This document shows, piece after piece, positions 4,919 to 19,129 of a DNA stretch of 64,000 nt. The stretch covers positions 64,001 to 128,000 of the IMG/VR virus record IMGVR_UViG_3300023199_000127. One strand, given 5' to 3'. Origin of the DNA: a virus. Within the stretch, counting starts at the first letter, position 1. Each line of letters begins with the position of its first letter. A program made the translations under genes and the position numbers. The notes beneath the pieces were generated by a model. The model did not search any database and was not told the DNA's origin. It was given only the letters and a program-made list of their open reading frames with translations.

Positions 4919-5712
4919 TGCCCTCTTCTATTGAGTTCGATAGCGTTTACGACTTTGCAGGCCTTAGAGTGCACTGCAATGCTGAGCGCCGGGCTCGGAA
5001 CGGCGCTACTGATGGTGCCGATGTCCTGAACGTCCTGAACAATGTAGATAGAGGTCCTGATTGGACAGACGCGAACACTCCTACATGGCATGACAATCAG
5101 CTGAATGGCGAGCCGATCTTTAGGTTTGGTTCAAATGAAGGATTCACTGAAGCACTGGGAGATGGCAATCGCCAAGAAGAGCTGCACCCTCTGGTAGATG
5201 ACTGGATCCAGTGGATGTATGAAGGCCCCATTCTGGTGATGACAGTGATGCGACAGACCGGGGACTTCTCCGTGCAGCGGAACTGGTTTGGTTTCGGGGC
5301 TAGTCTTGGTTCTGGCTGGAACCTGCAGACCAATACCTCCACCCAGTTTGTTGCTGAATGGAGTGATGGCTCTAGTGACTATACACAGGTTCTAACACCC
5401 ACCCCGGTACAGAATGACTGGTACATCTGCATGTGGTCATGGGATGGTGAGACGGACAGCCAATTCAGGATTGGGCTCAACTCCTTCTACGAAGATGCAG
5501 ATTTGGTGGACTTGAGCTCGCAAAACTTCTTGGCCGAGGGCGCTGGTGGATATCCCTACGGGCCGTGGCAATTTGGCCAAGCGTGGGCTAATAACATAGA
5601 TGCTGGTGAATGTGCTATGTGGGCTTTCTGGCGTGGTATTGAAGCTAATGAAAAGGCATGGGATGGCTTGCTGCGCTATGCTGGCACCAAGTACGACATC
5701 TCTCTTTCGTAA
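4918..5712 (+). CDS. ConA/LamG-like jelly-roll virion protein
   Basis: Start moved to the ATG overlapping the upstream TAA (MPSSIEF..). TPTWHDNQLNGEPIFRF, DWYICMWSWDG, FRIGLN, WQFG pattern. Confidence 0.6.
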   Translation: MPSSIEFDSVYDFAGLRVHCNAERRARNGATDGADVLNVLNNVDRGPDWTDANTPTWHDNQLNGEPIFRFGSNEGFTEALGDGNRQEELHPLVDDWIQWMYEGPILVMTVMRQTGDFSVQRNWFGFGASLGSGWNLQTNTSTQFVAEWSDGSSDYTQVLTPTPVQNDWYICMWSWDGETDSQFRIGLNSFYEDADLVDLSSQNFLAEGAGGYPYGPWQFGQAWANNIDAGECAMWAFWRGIEANEKAWDGLLRYAGTKYDISLS

Positions 5713-5969
5713 TGATTATCGTCCAATTCAATGAACTCTTCCCCGAGGGTCATCCGCTTAGCCTAGTGGAACTGCCGGATCTTCGTGGAAAGTATATGCC
5801 GTTTGACAACGAAGGAGATCTGGCGCCCACTAAGGGCGCCGGCGCACATGTTGGGGGCTTTACAGGTTGCCCAAAATGTGGAGAATGGGTACTGATTACC
5901 CTCGAGCAACGCCACGGGCAGCCTATCAAGTGCTCTTGTGGTGAGGAGTTCAGCCTGAATGACCTTTAA
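5712..5969 (+). CDS. Small zinc-ribbon protein (85 aa)
   Basis: TAATG-coupled ATG at 5712; CPKC...CSCG. Confidence 0.6.
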   Translation: MIIVQFNELFPEGHPLSLVELPDLRGKYMPFDNEGDLAPTKGAGAHVGGFTGCPKCGEWVLITLEQRHGQPIKCSCGEEFSLNDL

Positions 5970-8900
5970 GCCCCCGGACGGGAAAACGTCCATTGAGAAG
6001 ATTGAAGACAGCCAGGTTCAAGGCTTTGTCTTCAGCGATCGCACCAAGCAGGGTGTGCAGGGCGGCTCCGTGCGCCTCCTCCCGCAGCTGACTGGTAACT
6101 TCCAGGCGATCGGGGCTAAGTGGCCGGTGGTCGCAAGCTGGGATCAGCAGGAAGAGTTCCCGGCTGACATCCCCAACTCCGTTGAGACCCGATGGGACGC
6201 GAACCATGATCCCGAGTTCGCAGTCTTCTCCGGCTACCTGAAACTGAACCCTACTGGACAGGCACTATTCCTCGAGCAGTCTGGGACCGGTGTCAATGGC
6301 ACCAAGTTCTCTGACGTAAGCCCCATCATTGGATACACCCTGCAGTTCAGGGCACAGGTTCTGAATCACGCTACTGGTGATGCCGTGCAGGGCGCTATGC
6401 TCCTGTTTGATGACGGATCCAAGCACGATGTGCTTCGACTGCGCAGTGATGGTGTGTACCTGGAATCCAATGAAGCTCTTGGCGTCGTGACGGATATGAA
6501 ATCCTCACCCAAGGATGTACGTCTCACTGTTCGTGGTGACGACTTCTGGTTGTGGGTCGAGGGTAACGACGGTGTATATGCAGAGAATGGATTGACTCAG
6601 GACTCCGCCACAGGAGCCACGAAGAAGCTTCTTCTTGGCTCCACTGGCGATGTGACTGCTGATCTGCGGATGGACTATCTGTATCAGAAGCACGAGGCCA
6701 TCACAGATGTGCCCGATTCGCTCGATACCGGGTTCGGATTCTCTACGGATTTGCAGAGCACGCGACTCCCGGCCTTCTATCCCAAGAGGTATGTGGATAG
6801 ATTCAACAAGGTTTTGGTGGACACGTCACATGGCGAGAGTGAGATCCAGTTTGAGTCCCCCTACCTCTTCAGTGAAGACTTCGACTCCAAGACGGACAAC
6901 ATAGACCTGCTCGTTATCGAGCCCACTATCTGGAGCGATGTCGCCGGTCCGAGTACAGGCAGTGGTGGCCTGAACGTTGACTTCGACGGGAGCGATGGTG
7001 TGCTGTGGTCTTCCAACCAGTATGTGCGATTCATCGGACATGTTGGAGAGTTGCGCGAGGACCATTATTTCCAGATCACCTATGGACGTGTGCGTACTGG
7101 TGACGGAAGCTTTATCGACAATGGCACCGATCGGTTCGCGAATAACATCCTTATGAAGGATGATGGATCCAGTCGCTACTACTATAGGATCGACTGGCAG
7201 GATCTGACTTCCTTTGCTGGTATCTCTCTGTTTATCTACAAGATTGACAGGACTACCAGCACTGCTTCGCTGAAGGCTTCGCAGTCCTGGACGTCTGGTG
7301 CTGATATTACTACCTACCGTCCGGACGATGGGAAGAAGATTCGTGTAGAGATCCGTGGTCGCGTGATCTCTGTGTACCTGGATGTCTTGGATGGGAATGG
7401 GCTGGTGAAACAGCTCGAATGGGAAGACACCGAGACTAGCACACTGCCGCCCAGCGATGGTGACCCTGGTCTATGGCTGGGGCCCCGACTGACAGGTGGT
7501 GGACAGTCCACGATTCGTGACCTGGAAGTTGGTAACTTCGAAGGAGGCGGTAGTAGTACCGTCACTGGCACTACAAGACTGAAGATCGAGAAGTCCACTG
7601 ACGGAGGCCAGACGTGGGGTCTCGCCAAGAGCGTCAGCATCACCTCCATTCCCCGGCAGGAAGTGAGCCTTAGCGATATTGCTATTGATGGTCTGGCAAA
7701 GGATGCACTGCGTTTCACGGTTGAGCAGTCCAGCCCCGGTGGCCTTGCAGAGGCCATCCGGGTAGACCAGCTCACCGTTAAGACGGATTTCAAGGAACCC
7801 TCCCTCGATGTCTTCCCGTGCTGGGGACCGAAGGTGGGAGGTACCAATGTGGCCCTCACGATCAAGGAAGGCGCCAAGGCACTATGTGCTACGCCTCCCA
7901 CAGAAAGTGATCACACCAAGATGTACACCGAGGACAGCACCGATACTGGTGTCGCCTCGATTTATGGTTCCAGTATGGCTGCCCCTCCTTACGGCAACGT
8001 GTACGGTTCGCCAACAGTTATTGGGGCACCTTCTCTTGGCCTCAGTACTGTAGAGGTGCCCATCGCAGACGAGGCTGGATATAGCAGCAAGTCTGCTCAG
8101 GAAGTCTGGGGCAACTCCGGTGATGGTGTCACCTATACCCTGAGTCCTCCGGGCTCTGGTAACCAGCTGTTGCGTGGGTACCTGGAGGTACTGAAGGGTG
8201 CTGCGTATCTGCAGGCCAACACTGGCCAGCAGCATGTGTTCCGCAACGACACCTACCAAGACACCCGACGAGTTGGCCTGGTGTTCTCTGGTGGCTCACT
8301 CGAGCTCATTGCTGCAGCATTCGAAGCTGACTCGCACTTCCGTCTGCACCTCGAGAACATGGCTGAGCTTACGCTCACCGGCACCTCTACTGGTGCCGCT
8401 GATGCACACCGTAGCCTGGAGACCTGGACCATTGTCGACGGTCTCAATACGGAGGGAGATACCTTGCTCTTGTCCACCAAGAGCACTGGTGAAGGACTTC
8501 AGCTGGGTCTAAATGCCGATGGTAGGCCGTTCATTCGCGTCTCGGATGGCACCACGGAAGAGGCACTGACTGGTGAGTTCCCTCTGACTATGGGGGATCT
8601 ACACCATGTGGCCGGCGGCATCGTGCAGTATCCTGATAGAGACGCACTAGAAATTTTGCTGAATGGAGAGATCTGTGGCCAAAAAGAATCCCAAGTCCAA
8701 TTCGCAGCGTACGGCGACGGGGAACAAGTCCAAGTCGCGCAAGGGGCCGACCCCGGATCAGCTGATTCCGCGGGAGCGGTCCGACTTGCGGAAGGACGGA
8801 CCCGGGCACAAGCTCCCGACTCGGAACGAAGGGTAGTCGAGCTTGGTATTGCTGACCCGTTCTTCGGGTTGGATACCAACTGGCCCCTACGCGATAGCAC

Positions 8901-15394: not shown

Positions 15395-16984
15395 ATGTTC
15401 AAGCTCCGCAATCCCAACCAGTCCCGCCTGGCTAACGCACGTCTAGGTATGTTCATGCAGCGCCTCCGTGAGAGCCTCACGGAGAGCGCCGACCTTTCTA
15501 CCCTCAGGCAGAAGATGGCTGAACTGTTCAAGCAGTTCTTTCAGTCTGGTGGGACCACTAACATCGATCTTGATAGAGTCCTGCTCAGTAAGACAGCACT
15601 TCCCTCTGTCCGTGAGTGGAACGAGCTCATGGACATGATCGAGAACGATATCACTGCTGGCTTCCAGGAGCTCGAGGCCCTGAACGAGATGGCTGTTGCC
15701 GCCAGCAATATGGGATCTGTGCTGGTTAATGACCTGCGCGAGCGAGTCTCCGTTGCGGCTTCCAAGGTCATTGATGTCAGGCTCAAGAGTGGACAGTTGA
15801 ACGAGCAGCTGATTGTAGCCGGCGACGACTTCAATGATCTGTCACTGGTGGATGTGAACTTCGCCCTCCAGAACCCTCAGGCACAGGTTATTACTGGTCA
15901 GGGTGCAGTGACGCTAGCCAGAGCAGAAGCGCTCAATCTGATCAACCCGGATAATGTCCAGGTGCAGGTCAAGCCGCTGAATCAGAACATCACCACAGGG
16001 CCTACTCCCGACAACACCAACCGTTTCTATGAGGGGAACTTCTTCGACTTCCTTGGCAAGGCTCGCCCTGAAGGTGGTCAGTTCCACCTCGAGGAGAAAG
16101 CGAAGCCCGGCGTAGCTCGTCAGGGTGACGGTGGTATTCGTGTCCTGGACCTCGAGCAAGGTGGTTTCTTCGATCAGGTAGGGGATCTGCGACGTCTCAA
16201 CGAAGACGTTAACAGAGACGGCCTGCCCTATAAGCCCGAAGACATCCTGGTCATTGATCGTGGGGCCACTCAGGAAGAGAAAGCCGAACAGCGTCGTAAG
16301 ATGCTGGACGGCAACCCCGATACCTTCTGGGAGTGTGAAGTGGTGCAGCGTGCTGAGGAGCTCAGCCGGCTTGCACGCGGCAATCCCATCGAAGGCACCA
16401 ACGGCAACCCGGATGACCGATACTTCATTCAGGAGTATGCCAAGGGCGCTATAGACGCCCTTCTGCCTAACTCGGCACAGCCTAGCTCCTCGAATGTCCT
16501 TCGGGAGCCGGAACCCCTGGATGATCCTGCCACTCCCGACACACTGAGGGCTAAGGCAGCTTCCGCAGAGATCGATAGATTCGATCTTGAGATCGAGATC
16601 CAGCTCAGACTGCCGTCTCCTCAGCCACTGAACTTCCTGACGCTGAATCCATACAACTTCGACGAGACTGCATGGCTGGAAGTCTTCGAAATCTCCACTT
16701 CTCCCGATGAGAGCTCGGCCTTTGAGCTGATCGAGGGGTTCGCGACCAACCAGTTCGAGAACACCCTAACCGATGAGGCCAATGAAGAGCTGTCCCCGGA
16801 AGAGGCCAAGGTGGTCCTGTCTCCCAACCGATATGCCTACAGGGGCCAGGGTTTCTGGAGCTTCCCGGTACGTACCGTGCGACTGATCAAGTTCAAGATC
16901 CGGCAGAGAACGCCAGTCCCTAACCCGTACCAGCGCGTGATTGTTCAGCTTCGTCGACAGTTGACGAAGACCGTGAGTAAGTAA
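15395..16984 (+). CDS. Virion protein paralog B, N-terminal part
   Basis: 529 aa; KMLDGNPDTFWE shared with paralog A; lacks the family C-terminal motifs. Confidence 0.6.
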   Translation: MFKLRNPNQSRLANARLGMFMQRLRESLTESADLSTLRQKMAELFKQFFQSGGTTNIDLDRVLLSKTALPSVREWNELMDMIENDITAGFQELEALNEMAVAASNMGSVLVNDLRERVSVAASKVIDVRLKSGQLNEQLIVAGDDFNDLSLVDVNFALQNPQAQVITGQGAVTLARAEALNLINPDNVQVQVKPLNQNITTGPTPDNTNRFYEGNFFDFLGKARPEGGQFHLEEKAKPGVARQGDGGIRVLDLEQGGFFDQVGDLRRLNEDVNRDGLPYKPEDILVIDRGATQEEKAEQRRKMLDGNPDTFWECEVVQRAEELSRLARGNPIEGTNGNPDDRYFIQEYAKGAIDALLPNSAQPSSSNVLREPEPLDDPATPDTLRAKAASAEIDRFDLEIEIQLRLPSPQPLNFLTLNPYNFDETAWLEVFEISTSPDESSAFELIEGFATNQFENTLTDEANEELSPEEAKVVLSPNRYAYRGQGFWSFPVRTVRLIKFKIRQRTPVPNPYQRVIVQLRRQLTKTVSK

Positions 16985-17049
16985 TTCTGGGTAGAAATGT
17001 TGAGATCCTTTCTGACTCCGGGTTAGGATAGGATCCAAGGTAGACGTAG

Positions 17050-17241
17050 ATGGCAATCAAGAAGATCACCTTCGCAGCCCGCGGGACCAATTTCCTGCGC
17101 GTGACTGAGACCCTCGATACATACGAGATCGCGTATGTAAGCGATGGCCCCGTCATTCAACTGCACCATGATCCGGACACCATCACTCGTCTGCTTGCCG
17201 ATATTCATATTGAAGGCTGGCAGGTGAGAGATGGGGACTAA
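17050..17241 (+). CDS. 63-aa protein inside the insert that splits paralog B
   Basis: Normal phage codon usage; AGGT upstream; overlaps the next start. Confidence 0.55.
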   Translation: MAIKKITFAARGTNFLRVTETLDTYEIAYVSDGPVIQLHHDPDTITRLLADIHIEGWQVRDGD

Positions 17242-17968
17242 GACCTACTTCCAGTCCCTCACTCGAGAAGTCCGGTTCTCGTATCTCCAGACGTTGCAGC
17301 TGGTCTCCGACCAGGTCAACGCTGGAGAGCTTGCTGGTGAGACGCAGGGTTTCTCGCTAAGCGCCAACCGCACTAAGGGTGGGCGTTCCGGGTTCCTGGG
17401 CATTGGCGCCAAAGGCGCATCTTCCTCCTCCGTTTCCGTAGATGATTCAGGATGGATCATCTCTCGTACATGGCAGGAGACCTTCTACGATCGCATTCGG
17501 TACTCCATCGGCATTCGTGACATCGGTGCCTTCTCGTACCGCTTCGAGCCGAGCTCAGAACTCGTCTCTCTGCCTTTCCGTTCACCCAGGGAGCTCCTTA
17601 AGATAGAGCTCAGGGTGGATGAGTTCATCCCCAGTGTCCTGCCGAACAACCGTAGGTGGATCGAGTACTACGTATCCATTGATAACGGACAGGACTGGAT
17701 CAGGATGAATCCGCTGGATCATCCGACGCTCTTCAACGACGCCGGCAATATCGTCCCGCGGACCCTTACTCTCAATCTTGATGACGGTGGTCCGCAAGGT
17801 GATGCCGTCACCGCAATGAAGACGGAGCGGCCTGTGTACGAAGCCAGGTTCCGGGCTGTCTTCTTTAATGATCCCACGTTGCCGGACGGGGATCGCTTCA
17901 GCCCGGTACTAAAGGGGTATCGACTGTTGATGCTGCCGAGAGGTGGCCTTAGTGATGCCGGCATCTAA
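17231..17968 (+). CDS. Virion protein paralog B, C-terminal part
   Basis: Same frame as 15395..16984; RYSIGIRDI, WIEYYVS and SPVLKGYRL match the C-terminal motifs of paralogs A and C. Confidence 0.6.
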   Translation: MGTKTYFQSLTREVRFSYLQTLQLVSDQVNAGELAGETQGFSLSANRTKGGRSGFLGIGAKGASSSSVSVDDSGWIISRTWQETFYDRIRYSIGIRDIGAFSYRFEPSSELVSLPFRSPRELLKIELRVDEFIPSVLPNNRRWIEYYVSIDNGQDWIRMNPLDHPTLFNDAGNIVPRTLTLNLDDGGPQGDAVTAMKTERPVYEARFRAVFFNDPTLPDGDRFSPVLKGYRLLMLPRGGLSDAGI

Positions 17969-17977
17969 GGGGTAGAT

Positions 17978-19129
17978 ATGGACAAGCGTACGCGTAAGGC
18001 ACTCGCAAAGAAATTCCCGGAGGAGATGAAGCGTAGCTTCCTCTGCACTTCGGGAGATGAGGAGAAGTTGGCTCTTCTCCAGTTCCGGGACAAGAACGAG
18101 ATTCCGGAACCCTCTCCCAAGGAGAGGGTGCAGACTGACATCCAGATGCGCACCCTCGAGCAGAAAAACAAGAAGCTCTCGAAGCACAACCGTGATCTGG
18201 TGGACCAGTTCCGGGAAATGCAGGAGCAGATGGATGTGATGTCTATGCTGCCTAAGCCCCAGCGGGTGAAGACCGGCATTAAGTCGCGTCATGGCGCAGG
18301 TGTGGATGAGGCAGTCGCAGTCTTCGTGACTAGCGACTGGCACATCGAAGAGCAGGTTGATCCCTCTACGATCAGCGGCATGAACGAGTACACTCCTGAG
18401 ATCGCCGGAAAGCGTCTCACCAAGATGTGGGAGAGCGCTCTCCGCTGTGTTGATAAGGAGCGTAGTATCTCCAAGATCGACACCATGGTTTGCGCTGTCA
18501 TCGGAGACCTTATCACCGGCTTCATTCATGATGAGCTGGTGGAGAGTAACTGGCTGCACCCGCTCGAGGCTCTCGAGCTGGCACAGAACCATTTGATCGA
18601 TGGACTGTCCTTCCTTGCTGATCACGGCAAGTTCAAGGAAATCGTGGTTCCCTGCTGTTTCGGCAACCATGGTCGTACTACGACCAAGCGCCGCGTCTCT
18701 ACGGCTGCGAAGAACAACTACGAGTGGTTCATGTACCGACAGGTCGCGAAGTACTTCGAGGGAGACAAGCGCTTCCGCTTCCTCCTGACGGATGGCTACT
18801 TCATCACCGAGGACATCATGGACACTCGTGTCCGGTTCCACCACGGAGATAACGTGCGCTACTACGGTGGAGTTGGTGGTCTCACCATTCCCCTGAACAA
18901 GTCGATCCAGCAGTGGAACAAGAACAACCCGCGTCCTGCAGACTATGATGTGCTGGGGCATTACCACCAGCTACAGTTCACGCCGGACGCAATGATCAAT
19001 GGCAGTGTCGTTGGATACAACCCGTACGCCCTGTCTATCAAGGCACGCTACGAGCCGCCCCAACAGGGTCTGTTCCTCGTGGCCAAGGATCATGGCCCCA
19101 CGTGCTTTAACCGCGTGTGGGTGGAGTAG
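17978..19129 (+). CDS. Calcineurin-like metallophosphoesterase/nuclease with N-terminal coiled coil
   Basis: SDWH, IGDLI, GNHG, FHHGD, LGHYH motifs. Confidence 0.8.
   Translation: MDKRTRKALAKKFPEEMKRSFLCTSGDEEKLALLQFRDKNEIPEPSPKERVQTDIQMRTLEQKNKKLSKHNRDLVDQFREMQEQMDVMSMLPKPQRVKTGIKSRHGAGVDEAVAVFVTSDWHIEEQVDPSTISGMNEYTPEIAGKRLTKMWESALRCVDKERSISKIDTMVCAVIGDLITGFIHDELVESNWLHPLEALELAQNHLIDGLSFLADHGKFKEIVVPCCFGNHGRTTTKRRVSTAAKNNYEWFMYRQVAKYFEGDKRFRFLLTDGYFITEDIMDTRVRFHHGDNVRYYGGVGGLTIPLNKSIQQWNKNNPRPADYDVLGHYHQLQFTPDAMINGSVVGYNPYALSIKARYEPPQQGLFLVAKDHGPTCFNRVWVE

Follow-up and report, generated by a model that had tools for sequence, protein, structure and literature searches.

Why should the gene for a virion protein stop in the middle of a domain, give way to a small open reading frame (ORF) in another frame and then resume in its original frame? 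The question is raised by a 64,000-nucleotide (nt) stretch of viral DNA, here called the window, which corresponds to bases 64001-128000 of the 180.8-kb IMG/VR virus record IMGVR_UViG_3300023199_000127 (estimated to be 93% complete). Two ORFs of the window, 15395..16984 (529 aa) and 17231..17968 (245 aa), are read in the same frame, 1836 nt or 612 codons apart. A preliminary description made from the sequence alone took them for one virion gene interrupted by a 273-nt insert between two copies of a short repeat: either a mini mobile element that had duplicated its target and brought its own stop and start, so that the halves reassembled in trans, or a case of rejoining by RNA splicing or ribosomal bypassing. 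The features on which it rested (two ORFs in one frame, a 10-nt near-repeat 273 nt apart, and an insert with a stop, two hairpins and a 63-aa ORF in another frame) are all present in the sequence. The explanation favored here, which we regard as quite probable, is that this is a naturally split virion protein gene, that its separately translated halves (the N-half and the C-half) assemble non-covalently, and that the small gene was acquired later in the junction between them. The features at the center of the argument are the following.

15395..16984, + strand: N-half gene, 529 aa (from the ORF list and its translation), with the C-terminus ...TKTVSK-stop; predicted from the model of a fused homolog, P0007, to hold a long N-terminal helix and then most of a CBM32/discoidin-like beta-sandwich with insertions
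16963..16972, + strand: GACGAAGACC, T-K-T codons in the N-half tail, assigned to the outgoing strand of a beta-hairpin
17050..17241, + strand: small gene, 63 aa, in another frame; overlaps the C-half ATG (17231) by 11 nt
17231..17968, + strand: C-half gene, 245 aa, beginning MGTKTYFQ...; predicted to contribute the strand by which the hairpin returns, the strand that closes the discoidin-like sandwich and, C-terminally, a beta domain
17236..17245, + strand: GACTAAGACC, T-K-T codons in the C-half head, 273 nt from GACGAAGACC

Comparison with unsplit relatives shows the two products to be parts of a single protein. Both match PHROG 21108 ('virion structural protein') in colinear order (the N-half at profile positions 36-179, the C-half at 472-560), and fused homologs of 742-766 aa (P0007, P0016, P0018 and P0021) align with both halves over their full length. 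Paralogs lie within the window itself: the N part resembles the 858-aa paralog 12437 (hhalign, probability 96) and the C part the 960-aa paralog 19585 (hhalign, probability 87). The claim that the halves are together colinear with single-chain relatives is therefore borne out, and the alignment with uninterrupted homologs that had been proposed as a check shows the fused forms matching end to end. Searches of phage collections with the DNA and with the N-half protein gave no match; the C-half alone reached distant phages, where it aligns at about 30% identity with the last 150 aa of virion proteins that Bacillus and Moorella phages encode as one chain. These are the single-chain proteins gp056 of Bacillus phage vB_BauM_KLEB27-3 (605 aa, with a weak N-half match as well, in colinear order), CDS0054 of Moorella phage MTATph1 (578 aa) and ORF172 of Bacillus phage 0305phi8-36, all annotated as virion structural proteins; they come from Firmicutes phages, are shorter than the split protein and are only remotely related to it. 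Judged by the ratio of nonsynonymous to synonymous substitution rates (dN/dS; about 0.14 for the N-half and about 0.07 for the C-half), strong purifying selection acts on both halves. Annotators should record the 529-aa and 245-aa products as subunits of a single protein. Literature searches returned no description of this family.

Most members of the family are divided where the gene in the window is divided. Among 107 N-half homologs, 82 stand alone and terminate at this position, 18 continue into a fused chain and seven have a Hint domain there; stand-alone C-halves number 27 and are 241-294 aa long. One profile search for related loci returned eight IMG/VR loci. In every inspected locus (L004, L005, L007-L013 and L016-L029) a separate C-half gene lies downstream of the stand-alone N-half, often abutting or overlapping it and usually in another frame; the gap between the halves in relatives is 0-100 nt, or is occupied by other ORFs. 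The C-halves almost always start with Met followed by Gly, Ala or Ser (Met-Pro in L028), and since the second residue is small the initiator Met would be removed. In a tree of the N-halves every one of the 52 most distant rows is split, the other 45 include fused forms at several places, and at least four changes between the split and fused states are required. On this distribution the split reads as the old and common state of the family, and the gene, which encodes a structural protein and is divided within a domain, appears to have flipped between split and fused several times. The preliminary description had also considered that homologs might always encode two separate genes, which is nearly what is found: most do, and fused forms also exist. 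In the divergent split forms (P0044-P0101 and L007-L013) the N-half tail consists of a Thr run, Lys/Arg and then Gly with hydrophobic residues, and the C-half head of Met-Gly/Ala/Ser followed by basic and Thr-rich residues. By comparison of these sequences, the Thr/Lys/Arg-Gly-hydrophobic tail and the Met-small-basic head are the conserved signature of a predicted broken hairpin.

Where this hairpin lies in the protein can be read from the fused homolog P0007, which is 48-54% identical to the halves in the window. Its AlphaFold2 model has a predicted local distance difference test score (pLDDT) of 86.9, and about 91 at the junction, and shows a strand (474-489), a turn (490-492) and a second strand (493-503), with the break at the tip of the hairpin; the residues equivalent to the T-K-T of the N-half fall in strand 474-489. 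CBM32/discoidin modules superpose on the model with Z of 13-13.7 over 125-141 residues, within model residues 164-600 (for 4a42_A, aligned with VIA-align, Z is 13.7 and the root-mean-square deviation 2.6 over 125 of 127 residues). Because this superposition spans residues 164-600, the predicted sandwich straddles the break, with its closing strand in the C-half. The window proteins themselves fall below the cut-off against the Pfam F5/8 type C/CBM32 families (E 0.02-0.06). The hairpin would then be inserted between the penultimate and the last strand of a CBM32/discoidin-like sandwich, and the chain would be broken at its tip: the N-half would have no closing sandwich strand, the C-half would supply it, and the 529-aa and 245-aa products would be translated separately and then undergo strand complementation in trans. 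The model, in which one domain spans the break, suggests that the halves associate, and reassembly in trans is most likely; a family in which a CBM32-like sandwich occurs naturally both whole and divided could be useful for studies of strand complementation. Baseplate chains of Staphylococcus phage 812 (PDB 9euf_0, 9euj_G and 9eui_Q) also match the model, with Z of 12.6-13.1 over P0007 residues 121-734, and the protein is probably baseplate-associated. Sequence identity in these fold matches, to the phage 812 chains and to the CBM32 and F5/8 type C modules, is only 14-18%, and no function follows from a discoidin-like fold alone.

The 63-aa ORF is a feature of the sub-clade to which the window belongs. 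The order N-half (527-534 aa), ORF of 61-62 aa, C-half (245 aa) recurs in L004, L016-L020 and L026, and two tandem small ORFs (62 aa and 75 aa) separate the halves in L024 and L025 (L024:192-611 and L025:216-635). A word-based search for homologs of the small ORF found one relative and an exhaustive profile search five more; the search for the ORF elsewhere that the preliminary description had proposed thus returned homologs, with profile matches at this junction only. With dN/dS of about 0.29 and dN four to ten times that of the halves, the 63-aa ORF is, by its substitution pattern, a real and fast-evolving gene under purifying selection, and it should be called as a gene in annotation. Its product matched no Pfam or PHROG family. 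An AlphaFold2 model of the 63-aa protein (pLDDT 86.6) has the order beta-alpha-beta-beta-alpha-beta, a ferredoxin/ACT-like arrangement; a Foldseek search of the PDB with this model gave generic ferredoxin-like, ACT and UreE C-domain matches only, with E above 0.001, and the ESM Atlas gave no usable lead. In all loci of the sub-clade the C-half ATG lies 1-4 nt past the small-ORF stop or overlaps it, and this adjacency suggests that the small gene is translationally coupled to the C-half. The small protein is possibly an assembly factor, or the product of an unrelated accessory gene. The remaining features of the junction, with the copies of a short motif found in relatives, are these.

16985..17049, + strand: spacer of 65 nt between the N-half stop and the small gene
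16988..16997, + strand: TGGGTAGAAA, a degenerate copy of the TGGTAGAAT motif kept in relatives
about 17000-17038, + strand: larger hairpin, specific to the window, with the core GATCCTTTC/GATAGGATC; -21.6 kcal/mol, z -2.1
17118..17139, + strand: 8-bp hairpin inside the small gene; -13.5 kcal/mol, z -1.8
17222..17227, + strand: AGGTGA, Shine-Dalgarno-like, 3 nt upstream of the C-half ATG (by inspection of the sequence)
L016:3782-3790: TGGTAGAAT, after the N-half stop
L019:3792-3800: TGGTAGAAT, after the N-half stop
L024:176-184: TGGTAGAAT, after the N-half stop
L026:1167-1175: TGGTAGAAT, after the N-half stop

The motif TGGTAGAAT follows the N-half stop directly in L004, L016, L019, L024 and L026, in a spacer that is otherwise divergent; the window has its degenerate copy and then 45 extra bases, which form the larger hairpin. 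Both hairpins beat shuffled sequences only modestly, and the 8-bp hairpin is probably incidental; the stretch of peptide that it encodes differs among the small ORFs of relatives in a protein alignment. TGGTAGAAT resembles a putative extended -10 promoter element. In L019 and L024 it stands 7 nt upstream of the small-ORF ATG, where a leaderless small-ORF transcript could begin. As the motif is not enriched in the window, it would not be a general promoter motif of the phage, and a scan for promoters and terminators gave nothing above shuffles.

Was the gene split before the small ORF arrived, or by its arrival? The C-half of L028 is 62% identical to that of the window, and in L028 only a 62-nt spacer, without a small ORF, parts the split halves; the N tail of L028, a Gly run followed by Ile-Met, is of the type found in sister split clades. 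In the C-half tree L028, the fused P0007 and the small-ORF group form one clade (95 in the Shimodaira-Hasegawa-like approximate likelihood-ratio test, SH-aLRT), and the small-ORF group is monophyletic (SH-aLRT 98). From T-K-T onward the C-head of L004 is identical at 14 of 18 positions to that of L021, a sister-clade member without the small ORF, and L023, also without the small ORF, has T-K-T on both sides. Because of the evidence from L028, L021 and L023, the split and the Thr/Lys-rich strands appear to be older than the insert, and the small gene most likely entered a pre-existing junction between two cistrons. The gene would thus have split first, and the 61-63-aa ferredoxin-like gene would later have joined an existing junction in the sub-clade of the window. 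Several observations weigh against this account. The structural argument uses a predicted model of a fused homolog and not of a two-chain complex; N-half trees, among them a quick mixture-model tree, place the sub-clade in a trichotomy with fused forms that fits either polarity; the N tail in the window has no Gly-hydrophobic end, as most other split forms do; and the window is the only locus to combine in-frame halves with a 9/10 DNA repeat.

A rival account is a secondary fission, in which a small-gene cassette with its own stop and start was inserted into a fused ancestor and duplicated a 9-10 bp target encoding T-K-T. GACGAAGACC and GACTAAGACC share nine of ten bases, lie 273 nt apart and both encode T-K-T, so that the direct repeat is exactly in frame; one of the nearest relatives, P0007, is fused; and the N tail in the window differs from that of other split forms in being short. 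The repeat itself is nevertheless no more than chance. Under the codon usage of this genome two T-K-T tripeptides share at least eight of nine bases with a probability of 0.44, 1.9% of positions begin a 10-mer that has a copy with at most one mismatch 100-400 nt downstream, and the same 331 nt hold two further direct repeats of similar quality. A shared frame of the halves is a one-in-three event and is seen in only two of four relative lineages. The window and L016 have their halves in one frame; L004 and L019 do not. Only the window has the DNA repeat, which is absent in L004, L016, L019, L024 and L026, which have the same small gene; L028 is split without the cassette and keeps an ancestral-type tail; and T-K-T at the C-head is common to L021 and L023, which never had the cassette. 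Nor does the insert look mobile: it has no terminal inverted repeats, occurs as a single copy in the 180-kb genome and shows no endonuclease, transposase or Hint similarity in Pfam or PHROG. A transposable mini-element with target-site duplication was rejected on these grounds, together with the missing repeat in relatives that carry the same gene, and secondary fission as a whole is unlikely. What survives of the earlier proposal is that the halves have a stop and a start of their own and most likely reassemble in trans; the mobile element and the target duplication do not, and the T-K-T/T-K-T match reflects the Thr/Lys/Arg-rich strands of the hairpin. A near-palindrome of 10 bp, CTTCGTCGAC / GTTGACGAAG with the arms 1 nt apart (window 16949-16969), covers the codons before and within the first T-K-T and is probably incidental.

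Rejoining of the halves without a second start fares worse. As an unusual self-splicing intron, the 273 nt would restore one frame: the interval leaves the frame intact, minimal group I introns span a range that includes this length, a U precedes 16963 and a G ends it at 17235, and the folded insert has z of -2.4. However, a cmscan of 16700-17500 against Rfam, at E up to 10, matched no intron family and gave only three chance-level small RNA and small nucleolar RNA hits; purifying selection acts on a conserved protein encoded in the interval; and in relatives, where the gap is short or filled by other ORFs, the C-half always has its own start. RNA splicing, one of the earlier suggestions, is thus extremely unlikely. 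Another was translational bypassing of the T4 gene 60 kind, with take-off at T-K-T and landing on matching codons, and it has in its favor matching ACC codons 273 nt apart with a stop and hairpins between them. The bypass gap of T4 gene 60 is 50 nt, and that of the window would be more than five times as long; the stop lies three codons past the putative take-off site and not adjacent to it, and there is no hairpin at that site. The tail/head triplets (TKT/TKT, TRT/TKT, TRT/ART, IRT/ART, IRT/AYT and IRT/AKT) do not co-vary across six relatives and are unmatched in L016, L019, L024 and L026, which removes any requirement for matched codons, the two halves do not share a frame in L004 or in L019, and the gap is itself translated as a gene. 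Bypassing is extremely unlikely on this evidence, and a tempting recoding or intron candidate is removed. Decay of a broken gene, in which stop and insert inactivated a copy made dispensable by three other paralogs, would fit the presence of paralogs in the window, but both halves are intact and full-length against the fused homologs, dN/dS is 0.07-0.14, and the split arrangement persists across very divergent phages; it is very unlikely. An intein in the window was also rejected: the insert has four stops in the frame of the halves and no Pfam match, and Hint domains are found in relatives only.

The Hint domains of those relatives occupy the same position as the small gene. Seven N-halves (P0009, P0012-P0014, P0019, P0020 and P0024) carry a complete Hint domain on their tail exactly at the junction, with Cys as its first residue (P0019 and P0020 score 40-49 bits against Intein_splicing, and P0012 exceeds the cut-off for Hint_2 and PT-HINT). 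Five of the seven domains have His-Asn at their end, after which come Phe, a conserved tail of 20 aa and a stop. The C-half is encoded separately, and very close kin can be free of Hint (P0008 against P0009 and P0014). Three were located in their loci.

L005:5001-6992: Hint-bearing N-half with Cys1 and a Thr-x-x-His block; C-half separate and overlapping
L022:1603-3564: Hint-bearing N-half with the same features; C-half separate and overlapping
L023:3001-4989: Hint-bearing N-half with the same features; C-half separate and overlapping

The domain ends in His-Asn and then Phe, which is not a nucleophile, in L022 and L023, and in Val-Ser and then Cys in L005; the tail that follows in all three is amphipathic, conserved and about 20 aa long. 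Compared with inteins, a domain with Phe after His-Asn, a short tail with a stop and a separate C-half is not a splicing intein, and it looks like a self-cleaving Hint of the bacterial intein-like (BIL) or pretoxin type in a phage virion gene. Literature searches gave no description of Hint domains at such a junction, and their presence in phage virion genes merits its own follow-up.

Other material is found at the same place. In L013 (3953-7609) a 441-aa ORF (5529-6854) with a signal-peptide-like N-terminus stands between the halves, and the N-half is further divided into ORFs of 345 aa and 178 aa that overlap at 4990, by either a second fission or a frameshift. In L029 (672-3801) the 606-aa N-half runs on directly from its Gly-rich tail into a 105-aa extension whose first residues are Cys-Cys, and is followed by a 132-aa ORF and then a 266-aa C-half. 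No Pfam family matched the L013 441-aa ORF, the L029 extension or the 132-aa ORF. This junction is a recurrent site of additional coding sequence and accommodates cargo of very different kinds, among them a Hint domain that does not splice, in phage virion genes. A bolder account would make the break at the hairpin tip a conserved docking slot whose cargo differs by lineage: the 61-63-aa ferredoxin-like protein, a self-cleaving Hint, the 105-aa extension with the 132-aa ORF, or the 441-aa signal-peptide-like protein. The small protein would then be a stoichiometric third subunit of the split protein or a factor dedicated to its assembly, and its translational coupling to the C-half would be accounted for. 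In the boldest form, for the Hint-bearing relatives, the N-terminal amine of the separately encoded C-half, lying close by, would resolve a C-terminal thioester of the N-half, so that the halves would be ligated without an intein C-fragment. We consider the docking account, with this extension, unlikely. The slot downstream of the C-half varies too: in the window it holds a 383-aa exonuclease-like gene (17978-19129; PHROG 284, E 3e-39), in the nearest relatives a ClpP-family protease gene (L004:7545-8144 and L016:4762-5367) and in L006 a 55-aa HTH_8 gene.

The interest of the locus is moderate and comes mainly from three things: a break in mid-domain, fusion and fission that have recurred, and a junction with varied cargo. 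As a naturally split gene whose products would assemble as subunits, it has counterparts among known phages. In T4 the topoisomerase genes 39 and 60 are one phage gene split into two cistrons whose products reassemble, and in Aeromonas phage Aeh1 nrdA is split by the free-standing endonuclease gene mobE. The window resembles both in that a protein that is a single chain in relatives is encoded by two adjacent genes with their own stop and start, in that an extra gene lies between the parts, and in that function is presumably restored by association of subunits. It differs from them in its intervening gene, which is not a homing endonuclease gene (63 aa, ferredoxin-like, no Pfam or PHROG match), in the age of the split, which appears to be ancient and dominant in the family and not a recent invasion, and in the site of the break, which interrupts a beta-sandwich domain in a structural protein. 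A second likeness is to T4 gene 60, since there too matching codons flank an untranslated-looking gap with a stop and a hairpin; the gap in the window, however, is 273 nt long and encodes a conserved protein, its matched codons are not kept in relatives, and the part downstream begins at a start codon of its own. Phage genes split around an intervening gene are a known kind of arrangement, of which the window holds a new example.

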